Notes: generated by a model not told the origin, from the sequence alone. Positions 5-41,322 are shown, numbered from the stretch's first letter. The stretch is DNA of 55,524 nucleotides from a virus (IMGVR_UViG_3300025723_000050:1-55524), one strand, 5' to 3'. Translations and numbers: made by a program.

Positions 5-199
5 ATGAACTGGAACAATCGTTACGCTAGTGAAGACGACATTAAAGAGATGAGTAACGATCATAGAGAGTTTAATGATGCCATGGACCGTGTTCACACT
101 AAGAGCATGGAAACCTCAAAAGATCTTTCTAAGAAGATGAAAGATTTACATGAAATGGTTCAAACTATCAAGAGTATAAACAACCCTGATGCACCATAG
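5..199 (+). CDS. Small hypothetical protein with N-terminal WNNRYA tag
   Basis: 64-aa ORF; N-terminus MNWNNRYAS resembles MDWNQRYAA of the ORF at 40966. Confidence 0.6.
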   Translation: MNWNNRYASEDDIKEMSNDHREFNDAMDRVHTKSMETSKDLSKKMKDLHEMVQTIKSINNPDAP

Positions 200-299
200 A
201 GCTAAACCCCTTATAACACAAGGAAAATAGAAAATCGGAATCGGTTCTAAGGCCGGTGACGCGTGGTGCCCGTTTTAACCTAACTAGGAGTATAACTTA

Positions 300-1529
300 A
301 TGTTTAACAGTAAAGAAGCTGCAAAAAGAAATAAGTACTTTGTGCCTGATGCTTCACGGGCTAGGTCTAATACTACACGTGCCAAAGACCCATTGACTCT
401 TTTGCACATGGAAGGCACTGGTGGGTACAGCATCCACAAAGAAGATCCTGAGTTCTTTCATGTAAACAACCAGACTGCTAAGGCTGCTAATGCTTATCTT
501 AGCTACCTTGATGAAGACGAAGCCCCAAGCCCCAAGGCTGTTCGTCTATTTGGCCTTGAAGAAGCTAGTCCGGGCAACTGGAGACACAACCGAGATAAGT
601 CGCAGCTAGCTAACGTTAAAACGCTTGGTGACTATATGAACGTTAAGGTGCGTAACAAGACTTTTGGCCATACATACCAGCTTGGTATTGGGATACGTCA
701 ACCATCGTTGGTTATTGCTCCTAGTGAAGAAGGCTACACGGACTACCGTGGTAAGCGTGCAGGATCGTACACCAATGAGCGAACAGGTGAAAAGCACATT
801 GCTAATCCATTGACTCTTATGGGCCAATCAGAAGCAGAGACAATGTTGCGGTTTAATAGGCTAGTAAACGAGAATGTTACTGATCCTGAGCGATACCGTG
901 AACAAATGAAGAAAGTAAATTACCGCACTCATGGTGTCAAAGAAGGTGGGAGTTACATAGGGATCAAAGAAGGCACCGAACCACTACTTGTTCACCACCA
1001 CATCAACCACACAATCAACAATATGTGTGAAGCTCATGATGCTGTTGCAGGCGGAATTGATCAAAAAACAATTGATCAAGGTAAAACTGCCCGTTTTGTT
1101 AAGTGTTTTTGCCCTCACTGCATAATTGATAAGAGTACTCACCCTGTTAATCAGTGGAAAGATATGCAACACCACGAAGAAGCAGCCCGTAAAGCTGACC
1201 CAGCGACCGGTGAACTCGAAGATCCTAGAATTAGAAAAGCATATTTTGTTGGTTTTCCTGTTTCTGAGAGTGCTCAAGAGCTTGGACCAGTGGGTAAGCG
1301 TTGTCACCACCGTATTATGGAAGGTACTAAGGCTGAATCACAGGTTATTAACCACGCTGTTCGCGGTAGAAAAGATAGAGCAGCAAAATCTATGGACAAT
1401 TCACGGGGATCTCGACGTCGTCCATCCAGTGGTACTCCTCTTGATAACCTGATTGATAATTCAGGAATACAATCAAGAGTGCATTTTGACAGTGATACTG
1501 ACAGTGATACTGACAGCGATGAAGAATAA
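300..1529 (+). CDS. Hypothetical His/Cys-containing protein, possible head cargo
   Basis: 409-aa ORF, AGGAG RBS upstream; starts MFNSKEAA; CxCxxC motif; acidic DSDT-repeat tail. Confidence 0.75.
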   Translation: MFNSKEAAKRNKYFVPDASRARSNTTRAKDPLTLLHMEGTGGYSIHKEDPEFFHVNNQTAKAANAYLSYLDEDEAPSPKAVRLFGLEEASPGNWRHNRDKSQLANVKTLGDYMNVKVRNKTFGHTYQLGIGIRQPSLVIAPSEEGYTDYRGKRAGSYTNERTGEKHIANPLTLMGQSEAETMLRFNRLVNENVTDPERYREQMKKVNYRTHGVKEGGSYIGIKEGTEPLLVHHHINHTINNMCEAHDAVAGGIDQKTIDQGKTARFVKCFCPHCIIDKSTHPVNQWKDMQHHEEAARKADPATGELEDPRIRKAYFVGFPVSESAQELGPVGKRCHHRIMEGTKAESQVINHAVRGRKDRAAKSMDNSRGSRRRPSSGTPLDNLIDNSGIQSRVHFDSDTDSDTDSDEE

Positions 1530-1553
1530 AATCAAATTGTTACCTGAAATCTA

Positions 1554-1590
1554 TTGACAAGAATAAAAAAATCCTCTTATATATATAACT
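1554..1590 (+). promoter_or_regulatory. Possible sigma70-type promoter
   Basis: Perfect TTGACA at 1554-1559; TATA-rich segment 17-18 nt downstream is an imperfect -10. Confidence 0.35.
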
Positions 1591-4127: not shown

Positions 4128-5033
4128 ATGAGATACGCTACGCAAGGCAATGGTAACTACGGAGATGATGCTTCGTTACGCGCTATTGAGTCTCCTACAG
4201 AGGAAGACGAAGGGTTTGGTTTGCCTGGCCAATCTGCGATTGGCACTGTTGGTTACTTTAGATTTGCAGACATTGGTAACGAAGACGAAAACTCAACAAG
4301 ATTGACTGCTTTGGGTGATAAACCTAAAGATACCATTGATCTTGGCGGAGAACCACCAGTTGCAAGCAATGAAGGACTAGCTAGCGTTTCACCTGGTTCG
4401 CTATCAACGATTATTGGAGCAAATATGAGCATGAATGCAAGAATTGCATATGTTATGGAGAATGGTGAGCCATTCTGTAACCACTGTGAAAAGAACTACT
4501 TTCCAAAAGGACGCATTGCTTGCACGTGGTGCGGCTGTGGACGCCCGAATGATGATCATGGTGTAGTTGAGAATGATTTCAATGGTTCAAGCTTGCTTGA
4601 GAACGTAGAAGGCCCTACTGCTGGTGATCTTGACGCTGGTCGTGACATCGTTAAAGAAGAAGCCAAAATGGGTGCCGCTGGAGCATTCTACGCAATGTTT
4701 AAACAAGCTAACGATAGTGAGCTTTACTACCAAGGGTATGGCGATGCACAATCGGGCAAGCCAATGGATGAAGACCTTGCACTCTTGAGCAAAGACTATT
4801 ACGAAGGCTACAGAGGGTACAAGTTTTATAACAAAACTCCTCAGCAAAGCGTTGGTCAAAGTCTTTATGATATTAAACCAAATAGCAATTCAATTCCTCG
4901 TTCGCACGACATGCACCAGATGACCCCAGGTGAAGCTGACCGTGGTCCTCTTGAATTGACGGATGGTTTTAATCACGCTACCGCTTCTGCTGGGCTTCCT
5001 ATTGATGTGATTCAAAAGTTCTTTGAGATCTAA
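4128..5033 (+). CDS. Hypothetical protein with Zn-ribbon
   Basis: ATG at 4128 (MRYA...); CxxC...CxxCGC. Confidence 0.7.
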   Translation: MRYATQGNGNYGDDASLRAIESPTEEDEGFGLPGQSAIGTVGYFRFADIGNEDENSTRLTALGDKPKDTIDLGGEPPVASNEGLASVSPGSLSTIIGANMSMNARIAYVMENGEPFCNHCEKNYFPKGRIACTWCGCGRPNDDHGVVENDFNGSSLLENVEGPTAGDLDAGRDIVKEEAKMGAAGAFYAMFKQANDSELYYQGYGDAQSGKPMDEDLALLSKDYYEGYRGYKFYNKTPQQSVGQSLYDIKPNSNSIPRSHDMHQMTPGEADRGPLELTDGFNHATASAGLPIDVIQKFFEI

Positions 5034-6443: not shown

Positions 6444-6959
6444 ATGGAAACATGGAATGGCTTTAGAGTCGTCGGTGCAGTAGAAGACGATACTGATACT
6501 GACAATGATTTCACCAAAGATGGTGAGCTTGTACCTACTTTAAAGAAGATGCTTGCTGAAGCCTATGTTCTTTATCACACTATCCATGGGTTTCATTGGA
6601 ACGTAGAAGGATCAGACTTCTATGAATACCACAAGCTATTTGATGAAATTGTAAGTGATATTTACGAGAACATTGACCCTATCGCTGAAAATATTAAAAA
6701 ACTAGGCGAAAAAGCACCATTTTCTATGAGTCAGCTTGTTAGTATAAGTAGTATCAAAGATACTGACCTTGAAAGCAATAATACAAAAGAGCTGTCTAAG
6801 AAGTTCTTGGGTATGAACGAAGAGTACATCGATCATATCAAGAAAGCATTTAGAGTTGCTAACGATGCTGATGAACAAGGCATCGCTAACTTTATTGCTG
6901 AACGCATTGATCAACACCAAAAGTGGAGTTGGTTCTTGAAGGCGTCTACTGAGGCATAA
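6444..6959 (+). CDS. dps: Dps (DNA-binding ferritin-like protein) with N-terminal extension
   Basis: HGFHWNVEGSDFYEYHKLFDE and DPIAE ferroxidase motifs; C-terminal KWSWFL. Confidence 0.92.
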   Translation: METWNGFRVVGAVEDDTDTDNDFTKDGELVPTLKKMLAEAYVLYHTIHGFHWNVEGSDFYEYHKLFDEIVSDIYENIDPIAENIKKLGEKAPFSMSQLVSISSIKDTDLESNNTKELSKKFLGMNEEYIDHIKKAFRVANDADEQGIANFIAERIDQHQKWSWFLKASTEA

Positions 6960-7191: not shown

Positions 7192-7494
7192 ATGCCATTA
7201 GAATTGCCTGAAGGTATTACTTATAACGATGATAGTAATAAGTTTAACGAAGTAGAAGTTGATTCTACCGTTGATGTTGTAAATGATACAAAATGTATCA
7301 AATGTGAATTGCATTTGCAAGCTACGTTAGTTACAATAAACAATAGACACGAAGGCATTATCAAAGCAATGCCAAGTGAAAACATCCTGTGGAAAAACGT
7401 CTTACCAAAAGATCGCATTCGATGCATTAAGTTGATCAATGAGACTCTTATGGCAAAGCTAGAAAAACACATGGAAAGGCATAAACATGATTAG
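7192..7494 (+). CDS. Hypothetical protein
   Basis: 100-aa ORF with CxxC. Confidence 0.6.
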   Translation: MPLELPEGITYNDDSNKFNEVEVDSTVDVVNDTKCIKCELHLQATLVTINNRHEGIIKAMPSENILWKNVLPKDRIRCIKLINETLMAKLEKHMERHKHD

Positions 7495-7660
7495 ATACAG
7501 CAATACGCCAGACAAGAGCCCAAAGGTTCTTTACACAGATAGCCCAACGTCACGTGTCACCACTACGTCAGACCTTAAAGGTTTTAATGACGAAGGCACT
7601 CCTAACGAGAACTTTAGGAACTTGCAAGACTTAGACGCGGATGATGCTAACGATAACTAA
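7487..7660 (+). CDS. Small hypothetical protein (57 aa, not in ORF track)
   Basis: Read manually: MIRYSNTPDK...DDANDN*; fills the gap between neighbours. Confidence 0.55.
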   Translation: MIRYSNTPDKSPKVLYTDSPTSRVTTTSDLKGFNDEGTPNENFRNLQDLDADDANDN

Positions 7661-10732: not shown

Positions 10733-10734
10733 CT

Positions 10735-16416: not shown

Positions 16417-16421
16417 CATAA

Positions 16422-16940: not shown

Positions 16941-17708
16941 ATGACCTCAATGTTTGATTATGACGACTCAGTAAATATGGCTTTTGATGCCAAGATTGCT
17001 GGTAAAAACCTTGTCACCGCTAAGCACGAATTGCTTACTAAGACCGGTGATTTCTTGTTCATGGCACACAGTGACCGTGAACTTGCTTTCCGTATGCAGA
17101 TGGTTGAAGAGGACATCGAGCGCACTGCTCACCGTAGACTCGCTAACGTTAGTGACTCCAAGGCTAAGCTCGTCCGTGCCGTGCTAGAAGAGTGGACTCT
17201 GCGCCACGCATCTTGCCAGTTCTGCAAGCTTGCTTCTGATAAAGACCCCAATAGCAATAAAGACGTTCCTGACTACACGCCCAAGAGCAATGCCAATGAC
17301 TACCACAAGCACTACGATGGAAGTGATGAACCTCCTTGCACTAACTGTGGTATGCGTGGCAACCACTACTGCACAGGCAGTAAGGGTCACCCTAACACAC
17401 CTAACCCGTACAACCCAAAGAAGGGTCCTAACCCGTACAGCCCGGATAAGGGTCCTAACAAGGGTCCTAACAAAGATCCTTACAGAACTGACCCTAACAA
17501 GCCATTTACTCCACACCCCAACACAGCTCCTAACAAGCAACCTGACAACCCTTACAAGGGTCCTAACAAGGGTCAACCTGGCATCCCTAACCCGTACAAC
17601 CCAGGCAAGGGTAAGGATCGTCCTGAGACCAATATCATGCCTCCACACCCTAACAAGCGGCCCGATAATCCTGACAAAGGTCCTAACAAGCCCCCTTACC
17701 AAAAGTAA
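16941..17708 (+). CDS. Hypothetical protein: helical N-domain plus Pro/Asn/Lys repeat tail
   Basis: ATG 16941 after AGGAG; KGPN/PNPY repeats. Confidence 0.75.
   Translation: MTSMFDYDDSVNMAFDAKIAGKNLVTAKHELLTKTGDFLFMAHSDRELAFRMQMVEEDIERTAHRRLANVSDSKAKLVRAVLEEWTLRHASCQFCKLASDKDPNSNKDVPDYTPKSNANDYHKHYDGSDEPPCTNCGMRGNHYCTGSKGHPNTPNPYNPKKGPNPYSPDKGPNKGPNKDPYRTDPNKPFTPHPNTAPNKQPDNPYKGPNKGQPGIPNPYNPGKGKDRPETNIMPPHPNKRPDNPDKGPNKPPYQK
17390..17700 (+). repeat. Coding repeats (AAGGGTCCTAAC = KGPN; CCTAACCCGTAC = PNPY)
   Basis: Multiple dispersed and tandem copies visible in the DNA and protein. Confidence 0.8.
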
Positions 17709-17738: not shown

Positions 17739-19217
17739 ATGGATAAAACATTTAACTCTAAATACTCGTCGGGTACTGGTAGCATTAGTGGGAGTGACCC
17801 TGAATGGGGCACTGGCAAAATGGTCAGCAAGTCTCCTTTTGGGTTGCCTTGGTATGTTGACGAACCAGAAGATCTTAAGGTTATTCGTAGATCAAAAGAC
17901 CCCCATTGGCAATTTGGTTCAACTCCTAGAAGCAGAAAAGAACGTGATGAACTCGGTCGCCCAATAGCACCTGTTGAAAAGAGAGAAAAGGATACTTGGG
18001 AAGAATTTGATCCTGACGTACACAAACCTAGTTTTGCAGTCGATTCTGAAGGTGTAAAAGAAAAAGATCCAGCAGAACCAACCCCTCCAAAAACTCGTTA
18101 TACAAGCGAAGAGGATGCTCTTAAGCGTATTCTTAACCAACAGGGTCAACGAACAACTGATTTCCCCATTATCTATTCTCCAGAGGCACTTGAATTCTTG
18201 AAGGAATCAAGTGTTATTACTTTGTCACGTATTGAAGACATTGTTAAGCCAACCAGAAGAATTTTTAACGCTGCTGTTAACTCAGAAGATAATTATGACA
18301 CTGATAATCCTGAGAACTTGCAGGATGAATGGACTGATCGTACTCCTGAGGAAGAAGAAAAAGACCAAGCTGAATCAGAAGCATCAGAGGAAGAGGAAGA
18401 AGAAAATCAGGTAGGTAAGTTTACTTACGATGATAATCATTCTTTTACCCCTGCTGCTCCAGGGGTAGACGAAGAGCCCGAAAACGAAGACAATCAAGAA
18501 GAGGGTACTTCACAAGACAGCGGTGAAGAGGGTAAAGAAGACGAGGATATCGTCCCAATCCCAACAGCACCACCAAGGCCTAAGAAGTTTAAGAGCTCTA
18601 CGCCAAAAGTAATTACAGAACAAACTGCTGTCCCTCACAACCCTGAAAACGAAAGTTTTGATGAAGAAGATGAGAACCTTGCTCCTATTGCTGAATCAGG
18701 TGCTGCTAGAAAGCTAAAGCAAGATAAGAACCGTAAGAAAACTGTCAATGTTCCTCCTCACGCTGTGCAAGGGCCTGACCGTTTCATTGCTCACCTTTTA
18801 CGTGAAGACAACGAAAAAACACAAAAAATGCTTGTAAGAAAAAGTGACAAAAAAGGCATTACTTACAATGCTGCTCTTGATGATACCTTAAATGACTTAA
18901 GAGAAACTAATGAAAAACGCGAGAATATAAAAGAGCTTAGCAAGGCAATCCTTGACAAAGGCCTGTCCGATGACGGGTATGGCAAAGCAGTCACTAAAGA
19001 ACGTGGAGAAAAAGAAACTCACGTGCATTGTGGTTGTGAAAAAAGAGATGGCTTTGAAACGCTTGATAACATTGCTAAGATCAAGGGATCTGATCAGTAT
19101 AAGCAAGGCATCATTGATATCAAAAGAGATCCACAAGAATATGACTCTGATGGTTACTCAAAGCGTGACCGTATGGATAAATTTATTGCAGAATCTACTC
19201 GTTGTAAGGGTGACTAA
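17739..19217 (+). CDS. Large acidic, probably disordered hypothetical protein
   Basis: 492-aa ORF; starts MDKTFNSKYSS; E/D-rich centre. Confidence 0.75.
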   Translation: MDKTFNSKYSSGTGSISGSDPEWGTGKMVSKSPFGLPWYVDEPEDLKVIRRSKDPHWQFGSTPRSRKERDELGRPIAPVEKREKDTWEEFDPDVHKPSFAVDSEGVKEKDPAEPTPPKTRYTSEEDALKRILNQQGQRTTDFPIIYSPEALEFLKESSVITLSRIEDIVKPTRRIFNAAVNSEDNYDTDNPENLQDEWTDRTPEEEEKDQAESEASEEEEEENQVGKFTYDDNHSFTPAAPGVDEEPENEDNQEEGTSQDSGEEGKEDEDIVPIPTAPPRPKKFKSSTPKVITEQTAVPHNPENESFDEEDENLAPIAESGAARKLKQDKNRKKTVNVPPHAVQGPDRFIAHLLREDNEKTQKMLVRKSDKKGITYNAALDDTLNDLRETNEKRENIKELSKAILDKGLSDDGYGKAVTKERGEKETHVHCGCEKRDGFETLDNIAKIKGSDQYKQGIIDIKRDPQEYDSDGYSKRDRMDKFIAESTRCKGD

Positions 19218-19978
19218 TGTCAATTCATGATACACACTACGACCCAAAGAAGCGTTGCGCTATAGCAGACTTTGTAGACTCTCTTCCCGAAGATGAAAAA
19301 AAAGACTGGGCTTACTTAGGTAATTGCGGCATTATTCAGCGAGAATCTAGAAAAGCAAAAAAAGCTAGAAAACGTGGTGGTAAGAGTTGGGATAGCACCA
19401 TCGGCGCAGAGAACAAGCATGGTGAGATTATTATCACCCGCTCCGGCAATAGTCAAATCCATTCTTGTGTTAACCATGCTGCTTTGCTTTTGAATGAAGG
19501 CGTCAACATGGAGCACATGCTTCAGCATCAACGACCTGATCTAAATCCTGGTGAAAGCCCAGACACGCAGAACCGTTTCCACAACAGAACAGAAATGCGC
19601 ACTGAAAGATCAGACAAAGCAAAAGCTAGGCTGACTAAAAGAAAAATCTTGGAAAATAAAGAAAATAGAACGCGACGTAGAACTGATGCTGATGCTGATG
19701 CTACACCAGTGCCTAATCCAAATAGAACACCAGTGGAATACTTTAATGAAAAAGAGCTTAAACCAAAGATTAAATTCAATGCTGGCGAAACAGAAACGCC
19801 TACAGCTCCTACAGCTCCTACAGAAACCAAGCGTCCTGGTCGAGAGCGTAAGAACAAGCCAACACCTGCCGCGCCAACACCTGCCACGCCAACTAGTAGC
19901 CCAACAATTAATATTCCAAAAGCAAGAGTAAACCGGTTGTTTAATGAAAACGAACTCGAAGATGACGAAAGCTTATAA
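19217..19978 (+). CDS. Hypothetical basic protein with P/T-rich tail
   Basis: 253-aa ORF, TAATG coupled at both ends. Confidence 0.7.
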   Translation: MSIHDTHYDPKKRCAIADFVDSLPEDEKKDWAYLGNCGIIQRESRKAKKARKRGGKSWDSTIGAENKHGEIIITRSGNSQIHSCVNHAALLLNEGVNMEHMLQHQRPDLNPGESPDTQNRFHNRTEMRTERSDKAKARLTKRKILENKENRTRRRTDADADATPVPNPNRTPVEYFNEKELKPKIKFNAGETETPTAPTAPTETKRPGRERKNKPTPAAPTPATPTSSPTINIPKARVNRLFNENELEDDESL

Positions 19979-22431: not shown

Positions 22432-24763
22432 ACCAACTTTTAACTCAAAGATTGCTGCTACCCCAGAAGATTTTAACCAATACGACGAATATAGCTCAAT
22501 GACTCCAGAGCAAATGGGTGAAGCTGGTTTTTATTCTGAGGAAGCTCAAGAACGTGTACGCCCAAGTAAAGCTAAAGAAAAGCCAAGCACAACCCGTAAG
22601 ACTCCATTGCCTGGTGACATTACTGTTTATTCTGCTGAGCCTATTACATATAAACCAAAGCTTCAAAAAGGTCAAAAGTTTAGGAACGTTGTAGACCCAG
22701 AAGAGTATAAGCCTTTTGAAAGTGAAGCTAGCGAGTACCATAGCAATCTTCACAAAATGGCAGCATTGTTAAAAGTACCTGTGCTTACTATGATTTCACA
22801 GTTCCCATGCCCAACATGCAAAGGGAAGATGCACGGTGGCTTTGAGGAAGCTCCAGTAAACAAACCACATGAGCAACTTGAATGTATTACTTGTGGTAAC
22901 AAAGGTTTCCATCTACCGAAAGAGCATGCTGACTTGCTTGACAACATGTCTGACGTTTCTATGGAGAACCGTAAGCACAACGAAAACGTTCAATGGCACG
23001 AAGATAACTGCCTTGCTCATGACTGTGCTGATGGTTGCCCTATCAATAGAGCTATCTTACGCCACAGATTAAACAGAAAAGATGAAGATGGTAACTTGAT
23101 AAAAGGTTGCCATCCTTCTGAGTTCTGCACTGATAACCAGTGCATGCACCATGAAGAAAAAATTAATGGTCAAAGAATGCACTGTGCAAAAGATTGTGAT
23201 CATGTTCTTGGGCAAGGCAATCTTGACGAAGAAGGTGGTGGCCCACTAGGACCAGCCGACCAGGCACGTGCTAATTTCCTTGAAAAAAGAAAAAAGAACT
23301 GTACTAAATGTGACGGAAATGGCTGCAGAGAATGCAGTAGCCCTAAGATCCCACGTGGTGTTGCTTTCTCACGAGCTGGATCAAGCACTAGTACTGTGTC
23401 TTTTGCTGCCCGCCGCGCCACTGTTGGTGAAAAAGACAACATTGCTCCTATGTTGCAAATCATGGGTGGTCACCCTAGACAAGGAATTAGACGAGGCACT
23501 CCCATCTATAAGATTGGTGGTTGGGACAATACTAACCCTAATGCTGCTCTTTATTCTGATTTGCCCCAAGAAGACTACATGCTGCGCCACCACACTGATG
23601 GTGCTGTCCATGTACCGGGTATGCCTACAGAAAATAATTATGAAGGCGGCATAAACGATCCTAAATTTCATGAGGATTATGGTAAGTGGAAGAATGTTGT
23701 AGACGAAGCAAACGCAAAAAGTTATCAAGAATCTTTTTACAAAGCTCCTCATAGACAAAGAGAAATGCGTGATGAAACCGCCAATGCTGGTGGCTATCAG
23801 GGTAAACACACTTTTGGTGTTATTACAAACGTCAGCCATGATGGGCAATACGTTGAAGGCGTTGAGTGGGGCGCTAGTGCGGAAGATGATCGTAATGCGT
23901 TAAGAGATCAGATAAAAGGTACGTATGGTTATCGTCGTCAAACTAGACGTACTAGTGGTGACACGGTTAACAAATCTTGGAAGAGTAAACGGGATAGAAT
24001 CGTAAGAAAGCCTGTGCAAGACCACATTGCTAATGCAATGGATGAACTGCAGCCAATGATTGGTGAAAAGACTACATCAAGAAGAGTAACTGCAGTACCT
24101 TTTGCCTGTCACGTTAGCCAGGTTGGTAGAGTAGATACAGTCAACTCTCAATTCTTGCAAACTGTTGGAGACGTTCAGACAACCATGTTTAGACGTGATG
24201 TCGATCCTAGCCACAGAGATAACCCTGATGCGAACCAAGATCAAAAGATTCAGGCTGTTGTTCACCACTTAAAACCAACGCTTCTTAGTACAGAAGGTTA
24301 TAAGCACCTCATGTATACCACGCCTAACAATGAAGCTAGACGACGTATGTATGGTCTTGCAGAGGAAGCTCATGCCGTATATGGGGTCCCACTAAACCAC
24401 AAACACAGTTTGATTCCTAGAGAAATGCATGGAGTACTCGCTGGTCACGTAAGTATCAATAACAGAAATGACTTTGATGAAGCTTCACCATCAACTTTAG
24501 CTTACCAAGCAGCTATTAAGAGCCCAGGGCTTAATCTACCAACAAGTCAAATGCCCGGTCGATTGAAGGGTGGTGTACCTGAGATTTCTGACGAAGATGC
24601 GCAAAGAATGGCTGATACAGTCAATAAAAAACACTTCCGCGAGAAAAAAAGAAACCTAAGCAAAAATGAATTGGAAGATGTCCACGACGCTATCAAGAGC
24701 GAAGGTCACATCAATGGTGGCCTAAGAGCTGCTGGATTTGATCCAGATGATGAGGAAGAATAA
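22424..24763 (+). CDS. Large Cys/His-rich protein with CxxCxG motifs
   Basis: CPTCKG, CITCGNKG, CTKCDGNGCREC; starts MNKPTFNSKIAA. Confidence 0.75.
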   Translation: MNKPTFNSKIAATPEDFNQYDEYSSMTPEQMGEAGFYSEEAQERVRPSKAKEKPSTTRKTPLPGDITVYSAEPITYKPKLQKGQKFRNVVDPEEYKPFESEASEYHSNLHKMAALLKVPVLTMISQFPCPTCKGKMHGGFEEAPVNKPHEQLECITCGNKGFHLPKEHADLLDNMSDVSMENRKHNENVQWHEDNCLAHDCADGCPINRAILRHRLNRKDEDGNLIKGCHPSEFCTDNQCMHHEEKINGQRMHCAKDCDHVLGQGNLDEEGGGPLGPADQARANFLEKRKKNCTKCDGNGCRECSSPKIPRGVAFSRAGSSTSTVSFAARRATVGEKDNIAPMLQIMGGHPRQGIRRGTPIYKIGGWDNTNPNAALYSDLPQEDYMLRHHTDGAVHVPGMPTENNYEGGINDPKFHEDYGKWKNVVDEANAKSYQESFYKAPHRQREMRDETANAGGYQGKHTFGVITNVSHDGQYVEGVEWGASAEDDRNALRDQIKGTYGYRRQTRRTSGDTVNKSWKSKRDRIVRKPVQDHIANAMDELQPMIGEKTTSRRVTAVPFACHVSQVGRVDTVNSQFLQTVGDVQTTMFRRDVDPSHRDNPDANQDQKIQAVVHHLKPTLLSTEGYKHLMYTTPNNEARRRMYGLAEEAHAVYGVPLNHKHSLIPREMHGVLAGHVSINNRNDFDEASPSTLAYQAAIKSPGLNLPTSQMPGRLKGGVPEISDEDAQRMADTVNKKHFREKKRNLSKNELEDVHDAIKSEGHINGGLRAAGFDPDDEEE

Positions 24764-25869: not shown

Positions 25870-26517
25870 ATGTTTAGGTCCAGAAGAACTAAGATCGTTT
25901 CTACTCCTGTAGAAGAGATCCTTGAGGTTGAGTTTCCTATCAAAGATGAATGGGAAGAAATAGAAACTTGGGAAGAACCCGAGCCAGAGCAAATAACTAA
26001 CATTGAATTCTTAGCGATTAAGTACACTGAGAACGAAATGGAATGGGGAACGCTTACCAACTATGATGGCTATGAATTTAGCTTCCAATGGGATAACAAG
26101 GCAAAACGTATTGTTCGCCTTGTTGGACCTAGAGTTGATAAGTTAACTTGGGATCTTTGCAACGATGTGCTACACAAGTATTACATCAAGCCAGAACCAC
26201 CAAAGGTTGAAGAACCAATTGGTCCCCAGATTGAACAAGCAGTAACAAAGATTGAATCAGCAATAAAGAACTCACTGAACCCAGTAGCTAACGCTTTTAA
26301 GAACATGGAAAGCAAGCTAGAAAAAGCGATTACGGTAAGGCCAGCTCCGGCTCCTGTGCAAGCTGCTCCTGCTCCAAGGCCACAGACAGTTCAGTCAGTA
26401 CCAATGGCTGATGCACCGGCTATGAGCGTTGCAGATGATGACATTAGCATGAATGCTATGAAGTTTCTCCAGCAATCAGATACACCGGATCTAGGTATAG
26501 ATTATATGAGTCTTTAA
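25870..26517 (+). CDS. Hypothetical protein
   Basis: 215-aa ORF in operon. Confidence 0.7.
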   Translation: MFRSRRTKIVSTPVEEILEVEFPIKDEWEEIETWEEPEPEQITNIEFLAIKYTENEMEWGTLTNYDGYEFSFQWDNKAKRIVRLVGPRVDKLTWDLCNDVLHKYYIKPEPPKVEEPIGPQIEQAVTKIESAIKNSLNPVANAFKNMESKLEKAITVRPAPAPVQAAPAPRPQTVQSVPMADAPAMSVADDDISMNAMKFLQQSDTPDLGIDYMSL

Positions 26518-27453: not shown

Positions 27454-29817
27454 ATGGCTACCAATGACTGGAGTGCCTCTACGGAATTAAACCGTATGAG
27501 AACAGCCGGTATTACCCTTCCTAAAAACCCTATTGCTGGTCGTGTTGCTGCTCGCGACATGCTTAGCAGAGCTAAAACTAGTGGATCAATGCTTAATGAC
27601 ATTGGTCCTATGGCTATGGCTATGGGTGGCCCTCCAGAAGGTAGACAACGTCTTAACTCTCTTAAGCAAGGTTTTAACCTTGAAGGAATTGCCAACACAC
27701 CAAATCGTAGGTTAGCTGCCGCTACAGGATCAGATGCCCAGTGGGCTCTTCCTAAACTACATGACCCATTTGAATACTGGCGTGAGCGTACGTGGTGGTT
27801 CAACATGGAGGACCCCGATGAGCAAACCAGAAAAATCAGAGACTGGGCCCGCTTACTTTATACTACTCACCATCTGGTACCTGGCCTTATTGATATTTAT
27901 ACTAGGTTTCCACTTCTAGACATTGAGCTGGTTCACCCAGACAAGCGCATCTCTGATTTCTACAACGAGTTGTTCTTTGATGGTCTTAATTACCAAGACT
28001 TCCTTTATGACCTTGGCCGTGAACACTGGACCGTTGGTGAAGTATTCGCCATGGGTTCTTGGCACGATGGTATTGGTGCATGGGAAGAAGATGAGATCAT
28101 CAACCCCAACGATGTTATCGTTGCTAAGAACCGTGCTCTTAGAACGTACCAGTACCACGTTAAAGTACCTGAAGAGATCAAGCGTCTTATCGAGCGTCGT
28201 GACCCACCACAAGAGTATGCAATGCTTATGCAACTCTACCCTGACGTTGTGGCGTGGGCTAGACAAGATAAAGAAGTACCTGTTTCTGATGTGATCATGA
28301 AACAGATCAAGTTCTCTACTAATCCTTGGAGCGAACACGGTACGCCAATTCTTCTTCGTGCTTTTAGAACGCTTATGCTCGAAGAGTCCCTTAATGCTGC
28401 TCAAGACGCTATTGCTGACCGCCTATACAGTCCTCTTATTCTTGCTACTCTGGGACTTCCTGATGTAGACCAAGACGGTCCATGGATCCCTGACGCTCAA
28501 GAGCTTCAGTCATTGCGTGACGACTTAGCTATGGCTATCAACTCAGACTTCCGTTTGATGACATACCACCATGGTCTGCAGATTCAGAATGCCTTTGGTC
28601 GTGAGTCAATGCCTCGTCTTGATACAGACTTCATGCGCGTACAGACAAACCTCATGGGTGTATTTGGTATTGGTGCTGACCTTATTCAGGGTGGCCAGGG
28701 TGGTACATATGCTTCTGGTGCTCTTAACCGTGAGCTCATCACCCAGATGCTTAGCACATACCAGCACAAGATTGAACGCTTTATCCGTAGCCGTATGGAA
28801 CCAGTAGCAGAAAGACAGGGTCACTACGAGATGCGTAACGTAGGCGGCCAAATGGTTCCTGTTATGGAAACTGTTCTCATGGTTGATGAAGAGACTGGTG
28901 CTGAGTACGTTGAAGAACGACCCAAGCTAGCTATCCCAGAAGTACGATTCCGTTCAATGAACTTGAGAGATGAGACAGTTGAGCGTGGGTTCCTCCAGCA
29001 GCTCAGTGCCTCAGGCTTCCCAATCTCACTCAGCACCCTTGCTGTCAATATCCCAATTGACTTTGATGATGAAATTCATGCACGTAAGGAAGAGAAGATT
29101 AAGACGGTTGTTGCTGAGCAGCAATTCAAGAAAGAACTGTTCAACCGTTTGATGACATTGCAATTGCCAGTGCCACCAGAATATGTGCAGGAATACCAGG
29201 CCTACCTCGCGATGTTGGAAGACCCATCGCTTGGTGCACAGCTTGCTCCAGGTGCTATGGCTGGTCTTGTTGCACCGCCTAGTGCTCCTAACATGACTGG
29301 TAACACAGCAGGTAATAGCGATGCAGCCGCTGGTGCTCAAGTGTACCCAAGCATTAACCAAGAAGCTCAAGAACGTCAACGCCCAGAGATCAGCTACGAA
29401 CAGCGTAAGAGCCAACCTAAGCCTTCTAAGAAGGGTCCTAAGAATGGGCCTAAGAAGAAGACTGCATCGGTATCTGGTTGGGATGAAGACGACGACTTTA
29501 GCGGACGCGTTGAGTATGGTGACCGTATGAAGTTCGCCGTACCATTTGAGCAGCGTAAACGTAAGCGCATGAAGCTTGCTTCTGGTATGAAGGTTATCGT
29601 AGACAATAGCTATGAGAAGTTTGATGAGGAAACGTTTAAACAACACCTTGCTAACGCTCTTGATGGCGAAAGTTCAATGATACCTACGCCTACTAACAAC
29701 CAGAATACGGGCAACCCAATTGCTGATATGGCAGGTGGTAACAACCCAGGTGGTGGTACCGCAAGCTCTGCTCCTGGTGTCGTACAGACAAACCCTGAAG
29801 AAGAAACAGCTTTGTAG
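27454..29817 (+). CDS. Portal protein with long C-terminal extension
   Basis: Helical portal-like core (IDIYTRFP, WSEHGTPILLRAF, GTYASG); position upstream of protease, scaffold and MCP. Confidence 0.82.
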   Translation: MATNDWSASTELNRMRTAGITLPKNPIAGRVAARDMLSRAKTSGSMLNDIGPMAMAMGGPPEGRQRLNSLKQGFNLEGIANTPNRRLAAATGSDAQWALPKLHDPFEYWRERTWWFNMEDPDEQTRKIRDWARLLYTTHHLVPGLIDIYTRFPLLDIELVHPDKRISDFYNELFFDGLNYQDFLYDLGREHWTVGEVFAMGSWHDGIGAWEEDEIINPNDVIVAKNRALRTYQYHVKVPEEIKRLIERRDPPQEYAMLMQLYPDVVAWARQDKEVPVSDVIMKQIKFSTNPWSEHGTPILLRAFRTLMLEESLNAAQDAIADRLYSPLILATLGLPDVDQDGPWIPDAQELQSLRDDLAMAINSDFRLMTYHHGLQIQNAFGRESMPRLDTDFMRVQTNLMGVFGIGADLIQGGQGGTYASGALNRELITQMLSTYQHKIERFIRSRMEPVAERQGHYEMRNVGGQMVPVMETVLMVDEETGAEYVEERPKLAIPEVRFRSMNLRDETVERGFLQQLSASGFPISLSTLAVNIPIDFDDEIHARKEEKIKTVVAEQQFKKELFNRLMTLQLPVPPEYVQEYQAYLAMLEDPSLGAQLAPGAMAGLVAPPSAPNMTGNTAGNSDAAAGAQVYPSINQEAQERQRPEISYEQRKSQPKPSKKGPKNGPKKKTASVSGWDEDDDFSGRVEYGDRMKFAVPFEQRKRKRMKLASGMKVIVDNSYEKFDEETFKQHLANALDGESSMIPTPTNNQNTGNPIADMAGGNNPGGGTASSAPGVVQTNPEEETAL

Positions 29818-30905: not shown

Positions 30906-31565
30906 ATGATTAAATTTGGCGCCCCCTCAATTACTCTACAAGGTAGAGAGTCCTTGGCTAGCATTGGCCAACCTATTGAGCTGCACAACGTTACGCTTGA
31001 TGACTTTAGTTTCAAGCCAGAACCCGGTTATGTTTACGCTGTTTCTAGAGCCATTTCCTCCAGAGTAAACGCTAATTATGATGGTTGGCCTGTTGACCAG
31101 ATCAAGAAAAGCTACAAGACTTTCGTTGGTCGTCCAATCTATGTTGAGCATAATAACTCAGATCCTGAGCGTGCTCGCGGTGTAATCCTTGATGCTGTTT
31201 ACCGTGAGAGCAAGCTTGCTTCTGGTGCAACAGATGCCAGTGTCTACTGCCTTATGGAAGTTGATGCACAGACTTTTCCTAAGCTTGCCAATTCCATTAT
31301 GGAAGGCAGCTTGAACGCTGTCAGCATGGGTGCTGACGTCGAAGGCACTGAATGCTCAGCTTGCGGTAAATACGCTAGCAAGCCTGCTGAGTATTGCACA
31401 CACATTCCTCGTCTTAAGGGACGTACCGTTACTGTTTACAAAGCTGGAAAGCGCATCGAAAGCCTTGTATACGAAAGTTGCATTAAGCCAAACTTCTTCG
31501 AGCTGAGCTTTGTATTTGAACCAGCAGACGAGAGTGCTTGGCTCTTGCAGAAGAAGCGTTACTAA
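30906..31565 (+). CDS. Prohead (capsid maturation) protease
   Basis: NANYDGW, YVEHNN (His), GVILDA, VSMG (Ser), Zn ribbon CSAC...CTH, FELSFV.EPAD; sits between portal and MCP. Confidence 0.78.
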   Translation: MIKFGAPSITLQGRESLASIGQPIELHNVTLDDFSFKPEPGYVYAVSRAISSRVNANYDGWPVDQIKKSYKTFVGRPIYVEHNNSDPERARGVILDAVYRESKLASGATDASVYCLMEVDAQTFPKLANSIMEGSLNAVSMGADVEGTECSACGKYASKPAEYCTHIPRLKGRTVTVYKAGKRIESLVYESCIKPNFFELSFVFEPADESAWLLQKKRY

Positions 31566-31567: not shown

Positions 31568-32287
31568 ATGCCTATTCTTAAAGTATCTAACGATATCAAG
31601 AAGTACGCACTGGAAGTAATCAGAGTAACCATTTCACCTTTGGGTGATTGCCCGCAGTGCCAAGGCAATGGCTACAGAGATGGTATTTGCCCAGACTGTA
31701 GCTATGTTGACCCTCGGGTGCAAGAAGCTATTCAAGAGTGGCAAGATGCAATGGGTATTCAACAGGTTGTAAAGGAACAGCAACAGAGTCTTGCAGAGCA
31801 GAACCCTAATGCTAAAGCAGCTTATCGCAGCTTGTCATTTGTTGATGTCATTTCTAACGACTTCAATGGAATGGACTTCAGTACTCCAGCAGGTAACGGA
31901 AAGGTGAAATGCCCACGTTGTGGACAAATTACTTTTAACAATGATTCCTTAAAAAAGGGAGATTTGTCGGGTTCTTGTGAAAATTCTGCATGTGGACACG
32001 AAATTGCTGGAGCTTTAGGATTTAAAAGACCCAAGTTCCTGGGTATAGATCCTGAGGTGCAAAAAAGTTTAAGGCGTAACTTCCTTAGCCCAGCATCACA
32101 AAAGATCGAAAAGAATAAAAACAAGCTAAAGAAGAAGAGTGCAAAGGGTATGAATCCTGGAGCTCTTCAAGATGACTCAATGAATGCAGCAATGGATGGC
32201 ACCACAAGAATGTGGGACTTGCTTAAAGGTACTGCGGAAGTTGATGCACAGAACAAAAACGAAGAAACTAGCGAGGAGCAATCATGA
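31568..32287 (+). CDS. Double Zn-ribbon head-module protein
   Basis: CPQC/CPDC and CPRC/CENSAC motifs; ATG 31568. Confidence 0.65.
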   Translation: MPILKVSNDIKKYALEVIRVTISPLGDCPQCQGNGYRDGICPDCSYVDPRVQEAIQEWQDAMGIQQVVKEQQQSLAEQNPNAKAAYRSLSFVDVISNDFNGMDFSTPAGNGKVKCPRCGQITFNNDSLKKGDLSGSCENSACGHEIAGALGFKRPKFLGIDPEVQKSLRRNFLSPASQKIEKNKNKLKKKSAKGMNPGALQDDSMNAAMDGTTRMWDLLKGTAEVDAQNKNEETSEEQS

Positions 32288-33735
32288 GCCGTTTTGATGA
32301 CGAGATGATTAAGCAAGCAGACAATGCTTACCAACAGAGAGGTATGTCGGGAATGACTACCACTCCTAGACAGCAACCATATGACCAGATCGACAGTCTT
32401 GGTTCAGGCGGTTGGCCTGAGCAAGCTCCTGCTCCTGCTGCTGAAGTAGGTGGCTGGATTGCTGACCAACCTATGATGCGCCAGCTTGATGTCCGTGATC
32501 TTGATGCAGCTGACCAGGGTGAAATCATCGGTGGTCCTGGCTCGAGTGCCGTTTACGCAGAAGGTGGTCCCGTGTACGCAAGTGTTAAAGCTATTGATGA
32601 AAGCCTCTACCAGGTTTACAAGGCTAGCCGTGAAGTCCGCGATGCAATTCGCGATGAAGTTGACTTTGACTTCAGCAACCTTGTCACTGCTTCTACTGAA
32701 GCTGCAACTGTTCTCCGTTTCGCTAGCGCGGACAGTGACATCAACCAGGTTGTTGGTACCGTTGCAAGCATCGTGAATGACATTGAGAATGACCTCGTTG
32801 TTACTGGTGACTACCGTCAAGCTTCTGTCGACCTGAGAGCTCTTGAGGGTCTCTTGGAAGACATCAAGACTGCTGCCACTGGCGAAGAAGACGATGGCGA
32901 CGAAGACGACGAAGACGACAAAAAAGGCACCACAGCCAAGAAGAAGACCAAGTCTAAGTCTAAGAAAAAGGACTGCAAGAATTGCAAGGGCAAGGGTTGC
33001 GAAGACTGCGAAGACGACGAAGATGATGATGACGACGACAAGCCTGCTTTCTTGAAGAAGAAGAAGGCTTCCGAAGAGCACTGCACAGGTCCTGGTTGTG
33101 AAAAGGCTGGTTGCAGTGGTAGAATGGCTAACGGGAATATCCACAAGGGTTCTAACGGTAACCAAGAGAGCCTCCAGGTTGTTGATGTCCGTGACCTCGA
33201 TGACCAAGCCGGTGTTTGGGACCGTCAGCGCGTTATGCAGCCTGACCACCAGACTAACGTGCTTGTTCCTGAAGAGGTAAACGGCGAAGATGCTGGTTAC
33301 GTGCCATTCTACAACGATGGTACCGAGACAGGCATCCTTGACGATGAGCTGCATGGCCCTAACCACCAGAGAATTGACTTCTCAGATGGCACAAACCCTG
33401 CTCTTGCTCCTTACGCAGGTACTGTTGCTGCTGTGCAGGCTAGCCGTGAAAAGATCTTCGCTGCTATCCAAGTTGTAGACCGTCTCGAGAAGATGGGTAT
33501 GGTCCAACACGACGATCGTGCTAAGCACATCGCAAAGTTTGAACAAATGTCTGATACTAAGCTGGCAGGTTTTGTAGACAGTATCAACATGTTCGAAGAG
33601 TCTGGGGCTCGTCAACCCCGGAGCCAGAAAGTGGCAAGTGGAAGTAATCGTTTGCCAGAAATGGGTCGGTTGACAACGGCCTCAGCAGTTACTCGTCAGG
33701 ACGTTATGTCTGACGATTGGCTGATGACACTTTAA
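32284..33735 (+). CDS. Scaffold-like protein
   Basis: Acidic, helical and disordered; between protease and capsid genes; strong codon bias. Confidence 0.6.
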   Translation: MSRFDDEMIKQADNAYQQRGMSGMTTTPRQQPYDQIDSLGSGGWPEQAPAPAAEVGGWIADQPMMRQLDVRDLDAADQGEIIGGPGSSAVYAEGGPVYASVKAIDESLYQVYKASREVRDAIRDEVDFDFSNLVTASTEAATVLRFASADSDINQVVGTVASIVNDIENDLVVTGDYRQASVDLRALEGLLEDIKTAATGEEDDGDEDDEDDKKGTTAKKKTKSKSKKKDCKNCKGKGCEDCEDDEDDDDDDKPAFLKKKKASEEHCTGPGCEKAGCSGRMANGNIHKGSNGNQESLQVVDVRDLDDQAGVWDRQRVMQPDHQTNVLVPEEVNGEDAGYVPFYNDGTETGILDDELHGPNHQRIDFSDGTNPALAPYAGTVAAVQASREKIFAAIQVVDRLEKMGMVQHDDRAKHIAKFEQMSDTKLAGFVDSINMFEESGARQPRSQKVASGSNRLPEMGRLTTASAVTRQDVMSDDWLMTL

Positions 33736-34304: not shown

Positions 34305-35315
34305 ATGTCAATTACTCCTAATGGCGCTGTCGCTGAGCACCTTGCTCCCCGTACAGCCAAGAAGTCAGACGACTACGTCGCTGGCATCATCGAGGCCCAG
34401 GACCGTCTTAAGACAGCCACTGGCCGCGTAACTGCTACTCGTGAAGAGAAGCAACGTCGTCTCGCCGGTGTTCTGGCTGACAAGGACAACTACATGGTCC
34501 GTTTGGGTCAGGGTATGATTGGTCCCATCCAGCTTAAGCTTCGTTACCAGGGTATGACCCGTAACGTGCTTCTGGAAGACCCGTTGACCCCTGGTGTTCC
34601 CGTCATGTACGACGTCTTGGACGAGTACGGTCAGGCTTACATTCTTTCCGGTAACGAAGGTGAAGTCCGTGTGACCCCCTTCGAAGGTAAGAAGGTTCCA
34701 GTCCGCTTGTTCCGTATCGCTACCTTCCCCCAGATCAAGAAGGAAGACCTCTGGTACCTCCGCGTGAACATCGTGGAATACGCCCAGGACATGTCCAAGC
34801 AGGCAATCATGATGCAGGAAGACGCCCGTTTGATCACGGTGCTCGAAGCTGCCATCAACAACTACGCGGTTGACCCCAACCACGTTGTGTCGCCTAACCA
34901 CATCGTTAACGAGCTCTCGGGTTACATCACCCCTGACTCGCTGTACGACCTCGTTGCACTCATCGAAGTCCACCAGTTGGAAGCCTCGCGTCTTTTGTTC
35001 AACCCACTCGACTACCGTGACCTCTACAAGTGGGACATCAACCAGACGGGTTGGGCCTTCAAGGACCGCGTCGTTGCTGGTGAGCGCATCGTTCAATTCG
35101 GTGGTTTCCAAGTTCAGCGTTCGATCGAAGTGCCTCAGGGTACTGTCTACATGACCCCAAGCCCCGAGTTCCTCGGTGTGTTCCCCGTCATGTACTCGCT
35201 CGACGTCGAAGAGAACCACACGCCTGAGAAGTTCCACAAGGGTTGGGTCATGGACGAGCTCGTTTCCGAGATCGTTCTCAACCCCCGTGGTTTGGGCAAG
35301 ATCGTTAAGGCTTAG
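34305..35315 (+). CDS. Major capsid protein (HK97 fold)
   Basis: 336 aa; strongest codon bias in the window; QEDARL and C-terminal GWVMDE..SEIVLNPRG pattern; gene order. Confidence 0.88.
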   Translation: MSITPNGAVAEHLAPRTAKKSDDYVAGIIEAQDRLKTATGRVTATREEKQRRLAGVLADKDNYMVRLGQGMIGPIQLKLRYQGMTRNVLLEDPLTPGVPVMYDVLDEYGQAYILSGNEGEVRVTPFEGKKVPVRLFRIATFPQIKKEDLWYLRVNIVEYAQDMSKQAIMMQEDARLITVLEAAINNYAVDPNHVVSPNHIVNELSGYITPDSLYDLVALIEVHQLEASRLLFNPLDYRDLYKWDINQTGWAFKDRVVAGERIVQFGGFQVQRSIEVPQGTVYMTPSPEFLGVFPVMYSLDVEENHTPEKFHKGWVMDELVSEIVLNPRGLGKIVKA

Positions 35316-40098: not shown

Positions 40099-40100
40099 AC

Positions 40101-40964
40101 ATGAGAAATCGTCCTATTCCTCAATACGCATCAGAACCCGTTGGTATCACGACATACATTAGTGGTTCTTTGGCTGATCCTGATAACCAATACGTATGGC
40201 TTAACATAACCAACACAGATAATGGTGCAGTTGTGCTCGCATCAGGGCAAGCTGCATACGAGAGCACTGGCACATACCAATACTCTTTGACATCTAGTCA
40301 GACTGCTATTCAAGGAAACTATGCCGTTACTTGGAATTACACCATTAATAGTGGCACAAAAACCTACGTAGATAATATTGTTATTACTGATCAGATGCCA
40401 TATTGGAGCAATCTCGATCAAGGGACACGTCAACTTGTTATTGGTATTGTCCATAGACTTGACAAAAGTTTTGATAGTACAGCGGGTGGTCCATACCTCC
40501 AAGAACTTAATCAAAGCGGTTTCTTAATGTATGAAGAAGTTGCAATGGTAATGTCTGACGAAACCATGGACTACATCAACTTTGAGTTCCAGCCAATATT
40601 TACTCCTGCTTATGAAGTTGGTATTAATGCAACCGTGCCATTCCCAACTACGTATTATGGTGTGCTTGCTACGCAGACGTATGCTCACTTTTTGAAGCAC
40701 ATCGCACGTAACTACATTGAACAACCTACTCCACAGGGTATGAATGCTGCGTGGATGGACCGTAGGGACTACTACAACCGTTGGTGGCAACTTTACCTAT
40801 TCGATAAAGAAGTTGCTGACAAGCAGCTACGTCAGATGAAGCGTCAATACATGGTTGGATCTAAGCGAAGCCTTCTGGTTGCTGGTGGTCTTATCCCACG
40901 TATGTTTAGCAACCCAGCACGTCCTCACTTCCAATATGCCTCGGTCAATATGGGTGGAGTCTAA
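40101..40964 (+). CDS. Head-tail adaptor/neck protein (Ig-like N-domain plus helical domain)
   Basis: Position; GTYQY...GNYAVTW Ig-like pattern followed by helical adaptor-like region. Confidence 0.6.
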   Translation: MRNRPIPQYASEPVGITTYISGSLADPDNQYVWLNITNTDNGAVVLASGQAAYESTGTYQYSLTSSQTAIQGNYAVTWNYTINSGTKTYVDNIVITDQMPYWSNLDQGTRQLVIGIVHRLDKSFDSTAGGPYLQELNQSGFLMYEEVAMVMSDETMDYINFEFQPIFTPAYEVGINATVPFPTTYYGVLATQTYAHFLKHIARNYIEQPTPQGMNAAWMDRRDYYNRWWQLYLFDKEVADKQLRQMKRQYMVGSKRSLLVAGGLIPRMFSNPARPHFQYASVNMGGV

Positions 40965-40965
40965 T

Positions 40966-41322
40966 GTGGACTGGAACCAACGCTATGCAGCAGGCAGAAA
41001 AAGAACACCAAGCAACGAAATAACGTACCGAGCTCAATGCGGTAGTCGTTATGGTTATGATCTACATCGTAAATTCGATGAACCATCATGTATTCTTTGC
41101 CAAGAAGCTGTGAATGATTACGCAACAAAGCGTAATAGAGAACGTGGTGTGCAGGAGTTTAAACCTGCTGCTTGCGGCACAAATGGTGGCTACATGAAGC
41201 ACCTAAGAGAATTTGAACCAGCGTGTGAGGATTGTCTTAAAGCACATAAAGATCATGTCACCTGGTACAACCTAGCTGTTGACACTAGGAAAAAGATCCT
41301 TGAAGAATCGAGCGGACAATGA
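40966..41322 (+). CDS. Small protein with two CGxxxGYxxHxxxxExxCxxC Zn motifs
   Basis: GTG 40966 after GGAG; starts MDWNQRYAA; duplicated motif. Confidence 0.65.
   Translation: MDWNQRYAAGRKRTPSNEITYRAQCGSRYGYDLHRKFDEPSCILCQEAVNDYATKRNRERGVQEFKPAACGTNGGYMKHLREFEPACEDCLKAHKDHVTWYNLAVDTRKKILEESSGQ

Follow-up and report, generated by a model that had tools for sequence, protein, structure and literature searches.

A short N-terminal leader of the form [FW]-[NS]-x-[KR]-x-[AS] stands 1-5 residues past the initiator Met of five unrelated proteins encoded in a 55,524-nucleotide (nt) stretch of viral DNA, IMGVR_UViG_3300025723_000050:1-55524. This whole stretch, here called the window, represents a fragment (55.5 kb) of a viral contig in IMG/VR, and CheckV estimates it to be 35% complete. 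The sharing of the leader among unrelated, hypervariable proteins is real, extends through the clade to which the virus belongs, and is confined to that clade. By analogy with bacteriophage T4, we read it as a capsid-targeting leader or propeptide that is probably trimmed by the prohead protease, a reading to which we assign a probability of roughly 45%.

The window virus is an uncultured myovirus, actinophage-like and related to the Mycobacterium cluster C phages and Bacillus phage G. All of its credible genes lie on the + strand, and a megablast comparison of 24 kb of the window with phage genomes gave no match. The major capsid protein (MCP) has at least 80 close relatives in IMG/VR, of which five long ones (G001-G005) and one 52-kb contig (G013) were compared here. 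G004 is a complete relative with terminal repeats. The window proteins that carry the leader, or a form of it, are as follows (aa, amino acids).

5..199, + strand: 64-aa orphan with strict leader MN-WNNRYA (nt 11-28); no homologue in G001-G004.
300..1529, + strand: 409-aa orphan with strict leader M-FNSKEA (nt 303-320); the G001 orthologue starts MFNSREA.
4128..5033, + strand: 301-aa orphan with the short leader form MRYA, with which the G001 and G005 orthologues also start.
6444..6959, + strand: Dps/ferritin-like protein (Pfam Ferritin, 9e-20) with an N-terminal extension of ~18 aa containing WNGFRVVGA (nt 6453-6479).
7487..7660, + strand: 57-aa orphan with the short leader form MIRYS, also present in G001, G002, G003 and G005.
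17739..19217, + strand: 492-aa orphan with strict leader MDKT-FNSKYS (nt 17751-17768), in the operon directly upstream of the portal gene.
19978..22431, + strand: 817-aa orphan with the weak leader variant MKKFV-FNKEIE (low confidence).
22424..24763, + strand: 779-aa orphan with strict leader MNKPT-FNSKIA (nt 22439-22456).
25870..26517, + strand: 215-aa orphan with the weak leader variant M-FRSRRT; the G002 orthologue has MFNFKKT (low confidence).
40966..41322, + strand: WhiB-like 118-aa protein (phrog_12112, 1.4e-13) with strict leader (V)D-WNQRYA (nt 40972-40989).

By their starts, these proteins include an FNSK group (300, 17739 and 22424), a WNxRYA group (5 and, from a GTG start, 40966) and an RY group (4128 and 7487). 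A GFRVV group consists of the Dps N-terminus, METWNGFRVVGA (6444), together with two internal strings, GFRVVA in the product of 8527 (residue 209) and GSFKVVS in that of 3127 (residue 202). A sequence-only reading of the window had drawn attention to near-identical short tags at the starts of unrelated open reading frames (ORFs), and every string that it listed is present in its place. Its estimate of about 20 packaged orphans was an overreach, since only 8-10 proteins carry a credible leader: five strict, two RY[AS], the Dps variant and the two weak ones at 19978 and 25870. The internal GFRVVA and GSFKVVS strings were considered as cleavage sites and rejected, as neither has a leader context and both look like ordinary conserved core. 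The former is conserved core in the G001 orthologue of 8527, and the latter has no counterpart in the other genomes.

The placement of the strict leader is very restricted. A six-frame scan of the window for [FW]N.[KR].[AS] gave six matches, five in coding frames and one on the non-coding strand, and all five coding-frame matches lie 1-5 residues past a start codon. Among residues 2-12 of the 65 window proteins, seven pairs share an exact 4-mer, compared to 2.08 +/- 1.5 in 2000 local shuffles (P = 0.0075), and FNSK is seen three times (P = 0.0065 for a maximum of at least 3). The same exact 4-mer test applied to internal windows gave 0 pairs. Outside the leader, an all-against-all BLASTP comparison found no mutual similarity among the FNSK (3), WNxRYA (2) and RY[AS] (2) proteins. 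Pfam and PHROGs returned nothing for the tagged orphans at 5, 300, 4128, 7487, 17739 and 22424. For the 779-aa product of 22424, the locus search gave no distinct related locus, and no family or fold was found (the ESM Atlas gave nothing usable, and the model of the protein itself had a predicted local distance difference test score, pLDDT, of 0.38).

Four of the relatives (G001, G002, G003 and G005) bear the same leader at many N-termini, including forms that bridge the F and W types; in one orthologous pair, one member has W-N-L-R-Y-A and the other F-N-E-R-F-A. The conservation in homologues that the sequence-only reading proposed to check holds for the strict leader in these four genomes; G004 and G013 are tagless. 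In 26 N-terminal instances from the window and three relatives, the first position is W (13) or F (13), the second N (20), S (5) or K (1), the third variable, the fourth R (18) or K (8), the fifth mostly Y (17), then I, F, E, T and N, and the sixth A (21) or S (5), with S, A or K usually following. The codons at the conserved positions vary freely in these instances (Arg AGA/CGA/CGC/CGT, Ser AGY/TCN, Ala GCA/GCC/GCT). Within the window they also differ, with Ser as AGT, TCT or TCA in the FNSK proteins, Arg as CGT or CGC, and Tyr as TAC or TAT. This synonymous variation indicates that selection acts on the peptide and not on the DNA.

The proteins that carry the leader are diverse. Among 34 tagged proteins there are only 11 pairwise BLAST links at E < 1e-3, mostly between orthologues, which leaves about two dozen unrelated groups. 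Among relatives G001-G004, homologues outside G001 were found for just two of the eight tagged window proteins, 4128 and 6444. The untagged neighbours at 1980, 2399, 5731, 6959, 7192 and 8527 are kept in three or all four of these relatives. In the product of 17739, identity to the G001 homologue is 74% in the first 27 aa and 46% over residues 111-492.

A scan of all IMG/VR with a back-translated MNWNxRYA pattern gave 52 matches, a few of them double-counted where loci overlap, which fall into 30 stretches from 24 contigs. Without exception they stand at the head of an ORF with 42 codons or more, and they represent 37 distinct proteins, often in tandem arrays of 2-4 small genes. Clade membership was shown for 15 of the 24 contigs: ten are in the list of MCP relatives, and five of seven further contigs carry clade markers (the protease at 81% identity, a 2399 homologue at 53%, or a PolIII-alpha-like protein at 55-61%). 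Two fragments showed no clade marker, and the seven remaining small contigs were outside the marker test.

The strongest comparative point is that the cargo leaders, a similar leader on the portal protein and the Dps extension come and go together. All five tag-bearing genomes (the window, G001, G002, G003 and G005) have an 18-residue portal leader and the Dps extension. In the two tagless genomes (G004 and G013), the portals begin with MxNNGEGLTLP, a few residues at most from the predicted cut, and Dps lacks the extension. No partner gene restricted to tag-bearing genomes could be named from this comparison, which is coarse and includes effectively one tagless lineage. The G004 portal has 1173 aa compared to 787 aa in the window, and several large orphans upstream of the portal gene are missing in G004.

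The end of the leader, [KR]-x-[AS], is a pattern conserved near the N-termini of MCP, portal and scaffold-like proteins. The window genes concerned, together with the protease and two further proteins, are listed here; a downward arrow marks a mapped or predicted cut.

27454..29817, + strand: portal (phrog_2833, 3.5e-165), the first 18 aa of which (nt 27454-27507) form a tag-like leader ending ELNRMRTA↓GITLP.
30906..31565, + strand: prohead serine protease with predicted assemblin fold and a Cys/His cluster insertion (phrog_18299).
31568..32287, + strand: Cys-rich 239-aa protein following the protease, N-terminus MPILKVS..KKYALE.
32284..33735, + strand: scaffold-like 483-aa protein, so called for its position between protease and MCP, N-terminus MSRFDDEMIKQA.
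34305..35315, + strand: MCP with candidate sites R16-T-A18 (nt 34350-34358) and R66-L-G68 (nt 34500-34508).
16941..17708, + strand: orphan with an orthologue-supported start MTSMFDYDD...AKIAGK and a conserved [K]-x-A-G at residues 18-21.

Portal orthologues mostly keep [F/L]-[N/S]-R-M-[K/R]-x-[A/S]-G-I-T-L-P, which is the cargo leader plus one residue. Orthologues of the scaffold-like protein mostly keep MSRFDxE[LM]x[KR]xA, with [KR]-x-A at residues 10-12. The MCP matches phrog_2522 (3.1e-107) and is 63% identical to MCPs of cluster C phages (Phabba, Myrna and Catera) over 98-100% of its length; among its relatives, a structure has been solved only for Bacillus phage G gp27 (6wkk_A, E 7.6e-30). 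In MCP orthologues, an N-terminal stretch that varies in length and sequence is followed by an invariant R-x-A three residues before a conserved SDDY. Catera has R-F-A at this position in the MCP, and R-K-A-G in the portal. The sequence-only reading had listed K/R-x-A cores in the portal (RTA, KTAS, KLAS), scaffold (KQA, RFAS, KTAA, KVAS) and MCP (RTA, KTA), and all of these are present.

The Cys-rich protein, which adjoins the protease, contains CPQCQGNGYRDGICPDC. In G004, a 540-aa protein has an N-terminus similar to that of the 31568 product and a C-terminal part that matches the scaffold-like protein; it may be a fusion of the Cys-rich and scaffold-like genes.

The 30906 gene lies between those of the portal (27454) and the scaffold-like protein (32284) and MCP (34305), and its product is, as modelled, an assemblin-fold prohead protease, as the sequence-only reading had proposed. 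The AlphaFold2 model has a mean pLDDT of 87.3. Its best structural match is T4 gp21 (5jbl_A; Z 10.4, root-mean-square deviation 2.9 A over 129 residues, VIA-align), followed by herpesvirus assemblins (Z 7-10), compared to Z of at most 6.1 for unrelated folds; Foldseek E-values are weak (best 0.012). PHROGs assigns it to phrog_18299, 'head maturation protease' (7.9e-26), and to phrog_2774 (1.3e-65). No Pfam family was found at E <= 0.01, and phmmer against PDB sequences gave chance-level matches only. Residues H82, S140 (in an SMGA motif), E190 and E199 are invariant in 22 sequences of 32-93% identity, from which we infer H82 and S140 to be catalytic. Searches of the literature for proteomics or virion N-termini of Bxz1/cluster C phages turned up nothing relevant to cleavage, and in them we saw no published motif for this protease family. 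Inserted in the assemblin fold is an invariant Cys/His cluster (C150, C153, C164, H166 and C192), which has no obvious counterpart in T4 gp21 and suggests a zinc site.

Under the capsid-targeting reading, the leader would serve as a short appended peptide with which accessory proteins, diverse and fast-evolving, are taken into the prohead as it assembles. The 30906 protease would then probably remove it by cutting after a small residue (P3 K/R, P1 A/S), and the portal would carry the ancestral version of the site, [F/L]-[N/S]-R-M-[K/R]-x-[A/S]↓G-I-T-L-P. Most of the putative cargo consists of small, DNA-associated proteins (of WhiB-like, Dps, ParB-like, zinc-finger and exonuclease type), to which two large orphans adjoining the portal gene are added. 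A recognisable domain was found in 15 of the 40 tagged proteins scanned in relatives: ParB-like (5), ParB C-terminal domain (2), HTH/HNH-like zinc (2), DnaQ-like exonuclease (1), Q-like zinc finger (1) and phrog_2859 (4); further Pfam matches are weaker. A tblastn search with the tagged, free-standing phrog_2859-like domain matched 43 phage records. The annotation at the matched site is prohead or capsid-maturation protease, minor head protein, MCP (in fusion genes) or portal in 18 of the 25 that were listed. In Actinomycetia phage DSL-LC01 and halovirus HGTV-1 the domain lies within large 'protease' genes directly upstream of the MCP gene. This domain, the most telling of those found, is thus carried into the head by fusion in other phages and stands free with a leader here.

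The tagged WhiB-like gene is similarly placed among structural genes. At both ends it overlaps its neighbours in the neck/tail run, the GTG start with the upstream neck gene's stop and its stop with the start of the next gene, so that it is probably made late together with the structural proteins. The starts and stops of this gene and of two large tagged orphans overlap those of neighbours within the structural gene run. In G001 the site of 40966 is occupied by an unrelated, untagged Cys-rich gene of 208 aa.

Leader-like sequences also occur away from N-termini. A protein encoded on the + strand of the G003 contig (1076-2212) contains SSWNKRYANSK at residue 211, and the G002 orthologue of 8527 (a minus-strand ORF starting at 19348) contains RSFNSRYADPT at residue 160; these could be fusion scars or internal processing sites. 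The G002 orthologue of the untagged, conserved 2399-3127 gene (phrog_19005) has a possible 16-residue N-terminal extension that is leader-like (MQWNEKYI...), which may instead reflect a mis-called start.

In the passages of PMC3012670 concerned, the T4 internal proteins are described as diverse defence proteins that have nothing in common beyond their conserved capsid-targeting sequence (CTS), which loads them into the scaffolding core and is then cut off, the proteins being injected with the DNA. The present system resembles that of IPI, IPII and IPIII in having a short N-terminal leader common to unrelated, hypervariable accessory proteins and a prohead protease of the same fold. It differs in phage lineage, in leader sequence and in cargo (WhiB-like, Dps and ParB-like here), and is known from sequence alone. 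The T4 cleavage motif has Glu at P1, where a small residue (A/S) is the putative one here, and the T4 CTS sequence differs from this leader. We suggest that the leader works like a CTS; membership in the T4-type system is unproven on the defining experimental features of that system.

Herpesvirus assemblins share the fold of the 30906 protease and prefer Ala at P1 and Ser at P1', which resembles R-Y-A↓S/A at the end of the leader. However, they belong to eukaryotic viruses, and their sites are at the C-terminal end of the scaffold rather than in N-terminal cargo leaders. The Dps extension can be likened to the short terminal peptides by which encapsulins, which have an HK97-fold shell, load cargo including ferritin-like proteins. 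Encapsulin peptides are usually C-terminal and uncleaved, however, and have no sequence likeness to the leader. Among the giant phages, the sections of PMC10052503 on SPN3US describe a prohead protease that reads a P3-x-P1 motif, AXE, and strips many head and ejection proteins of their N-terminal propeptides, two of which have only 20-24 residues. The P3-x-P1 reading and the removal of N-terminal propeptides are points of likeness with phiKZ and SPN3US. In contrast, the propeptides described there are mostly long (111-254 residues) and without a common leader, and the motif ends in Glu. Phage G and the cluster C phages (Bxz1/Catera) have homologous MCP, portal, cement protein and protease; unlike in the window, no [FW]N-type leaders were seen at N-termini in Catera.

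Several observations weigh against the capsid-targeting reading. In the portion of PMC5646251 that treats the phage G MCP, N-terminal sequencing shows that the protein is shortened from 282 to 255 residues by loss of 27 N-terminal residues, which places the cut at RVALA↓QAMANP. This cut aligns with V-R66-L-G68↓Q69-G-M-I-G-P of the window MCP, a stretch invariant in all relatives and Catera, and not with R16-T-A18. It is the only cut mapped experimentally in this MCP family, with Ala in the P1 and P3 positions and Arg in P5, rather than K/R in P3. The window MCP may therefore lose ~68 residues, or be cut at both sites. Five of 38 distinct portal N-termini have R-[RK]-E-G, which breaks the small P1 residue, and the protease N-termini in orthologues are often G-R-E-T-L-A-G, which fits R-x-x-L-A as well as R-x-[AS]. 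Orthologues also conserve sequence just past the leader (in 17739, for example, through residue 23), which is unlike a throw-away propeptide. The tagged proteins are largely DNA-binding regulators and nucleases, and would suit a regulatory degron too. Because G004 and G013 are one lineage, the co-variation described above amounts to a single evolutionary contrast. Finally, the loose motif [KR].[AS] is not enriched in the whole proteome of the window (242 observed compared to 225 +/- 12.5) or at N-termini in Catera (41 kb), and it was picked after looking at the data, which makes its P values soft; some 1200 simple two-residue patterns were open to choice. The proposal of the sequence-only reading that K/R-x-A is the cleavage signal is consistent with the position and conservation of the motif, but the motif is too loose and the phage G cut aligns elsewhere.

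The loose motif is nevertheless concentrated at N-termini, where the comparison with shuffles that the sequence-only reading suggested gives a positive result. The first 20 residues contain 35 occurrences, in 31 of the 65 proteins, compared to 14.2 +/- 3.6 in whole-protein shuffles and 19.6 +/- 3.9 in shuffles that keep N-terminal composition (P = 0.001). By gene group, the motif is present in this region in nine of 13 head-module proteins (P = 0.012), seven of ten orphans upstream of the portal (P = 0.006) and nine of 18 left orphans (P = 0.057). As that reading had judged by eye, it is less prominent in sugar genes (2/8) and neck/tail genes (4/16), neither of which is significant. With one automatic gene caller used throughout, N-terminal z-scores against local shuffles are 3.7 for the window, 2.9 for G001 and 2.3 for G004, compared to 0.0 for Catera (41 kb), 0.9 for phage G (45 kb), 0.3 for T4 (50 kb) and 0.4 for L5 (50 kb). 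We regard this enrichment as suggestive; only the strict leader has been replicated independently.

It is quite possible, if still short of probable, that the strict leader alone is meaningful, and that the wider K/R-x-A/S pattern reflects composition, helix periodicity and post hoc selection, with the true protease motif being a different one such as x-L-A↓ or R-L-G↓. The lack of proteome-wide enrichment, the number of patterns that could have been chosen, the A-L-A↓Q site of phage G and the recurrence of R-x-x-L-A in protease and MCP all agree with such an explanation. So does the per-protein excess, which is strong in 5731 alone (13 compared to 4.9) and weaker (P 0.02-0.035) in 25297, 35468 and 42044. 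However, G001 and G004 also show the N-terminal enrichment and the four control phages do not; MCP, scaffold and portal orthologues keep the motif in position; and the strict leader itself ends in [KR]-x-[AS]. Within 5731-6441, the 13 matches (z ~4) are spread along the length of the protein and look more like a helical repeat than like several cleavage sites.

The main rival to capsid targeting takes the leader to be an N-terminal recognition signal that acts outside the capsid, either a degron for a host or phage AAA+ protease that allows timed turnover, or a docking peptide for a common partner such as DNA, RNA polymerase or a chaperone. N-terminal ClpX recognition motifs are known on phage proteins, and the extreme N-terminus, where the leader is found, is the usual place for such signals. 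The nucleic-acid-related nature of most recognisable tagged domains and the conservation just past the leader also fit. We nonetheless consider this explanation rather unlikely: the leader vanishes along with the tag-like leader of the portal, an outcome not expected of a pure degron; in other phages one tagged domain is a module of head genes; the large tagged orphans are in an operon adjoining the portal gene; and the tagged WhiB-like gene is embedded in the structural run. That recombination or cassette exchange has its boundaries at the shared 5' ends, or that these ends form a common translation-initiation region, conserved as DNA or mRNA and encoding a functionless peptide, would suit the tandem arrays, the hypervariable regions and the A-rich post-start codons usual in well-translated genes, but is very improbable given the synonymous variation described above, the exchange of TGG (W) with TTY (F), the variable distance of 1-5 codons from the ATG and the lack of common upstream sequence among the tagged genes of the window.

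For the capsid-targeting reading, the targeting itself, the exact position of the cut and injection into the host are all inferred. A more ambitious form of it is unlikely on present evidence. In this form, a six-residue leader that mimics the portal processing site would load a changeable arsenal (the late WhiB-like, Dps/ferritin-like and ParB-like proteins and nucleases), be trimmed after [K/R]-x-[A/S], and allow the cargo to enter the host with the DNA. Cargo loading of this kind, no more likely, would unite internal proteins in the manner of T4 with ferritin cargo in that of encapsulins, neither of which has been described in this lineage.

If the leader does target proteins to the capsid, the Bxz1/phage G lineage would provide a second, independently evolved case of the principle behind the T4 CTS. 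Sequence alone could then single out, in the abundant uncultured phages of fresh water, dozens of proteins as candidates for injection, with anti-defence or takeover as their likely roles. Foreign proteins could also be loaded into actinophage heads with the leader as a short tag, and the specificity of a prohead protease family that has no assigned motif could be guessed at for the first time. If it is a degron or docking peptide instead, it would still be a new clade-wide N-terminal signal common to at least 37 proteins.

The overall gene order of the window places orphans and the Dps/ferritin-like gene at 5-10.6 kb, a tRNA-flanked heptose/sugar-nucleotide cassette at 10.7-16.8 kb, and orphans, three of them encoding proteins of 492-817 aa, at 16.9-27.4 kb. 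The head genes follow in the order portal (27454), protease (30906), Cys-rich protein (31568), scaffold-like protein (32284), cement protein (PF23968, 33768) and MCP. Beyond these are neck and tail genes in which the WhiB-like gene (40966) is embedded, then sheath (43309), tube, tape measure and baseplate genes.

The sugar-nucleotide/heptose cassette (10735-16336) has eight genes, with tRNA-Asp (10659-10733) on one flank and four tRNA genes (16345-16770) on the other. It includes genes for a Zn-dependent dehydrogenase, a thiamine pyrophosphate (TPP) enzyme, a PfkB kinase, an epimerase, cytidylyltransferase-like and phosphoheptose-isomerase-like proteins and a cupin. The cassette was found in the window and G001 only and is absent from G002-G004, and with its location between tRNA genes it looks like a mobile auxiliary module. 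Two proteins of the window have NlpC/P60 domains, a small one in the head/neck region (37947-38438) and a 985-aa baseplate/virion protein (51679-54636, phrog_2810) of which the domain forms a part.

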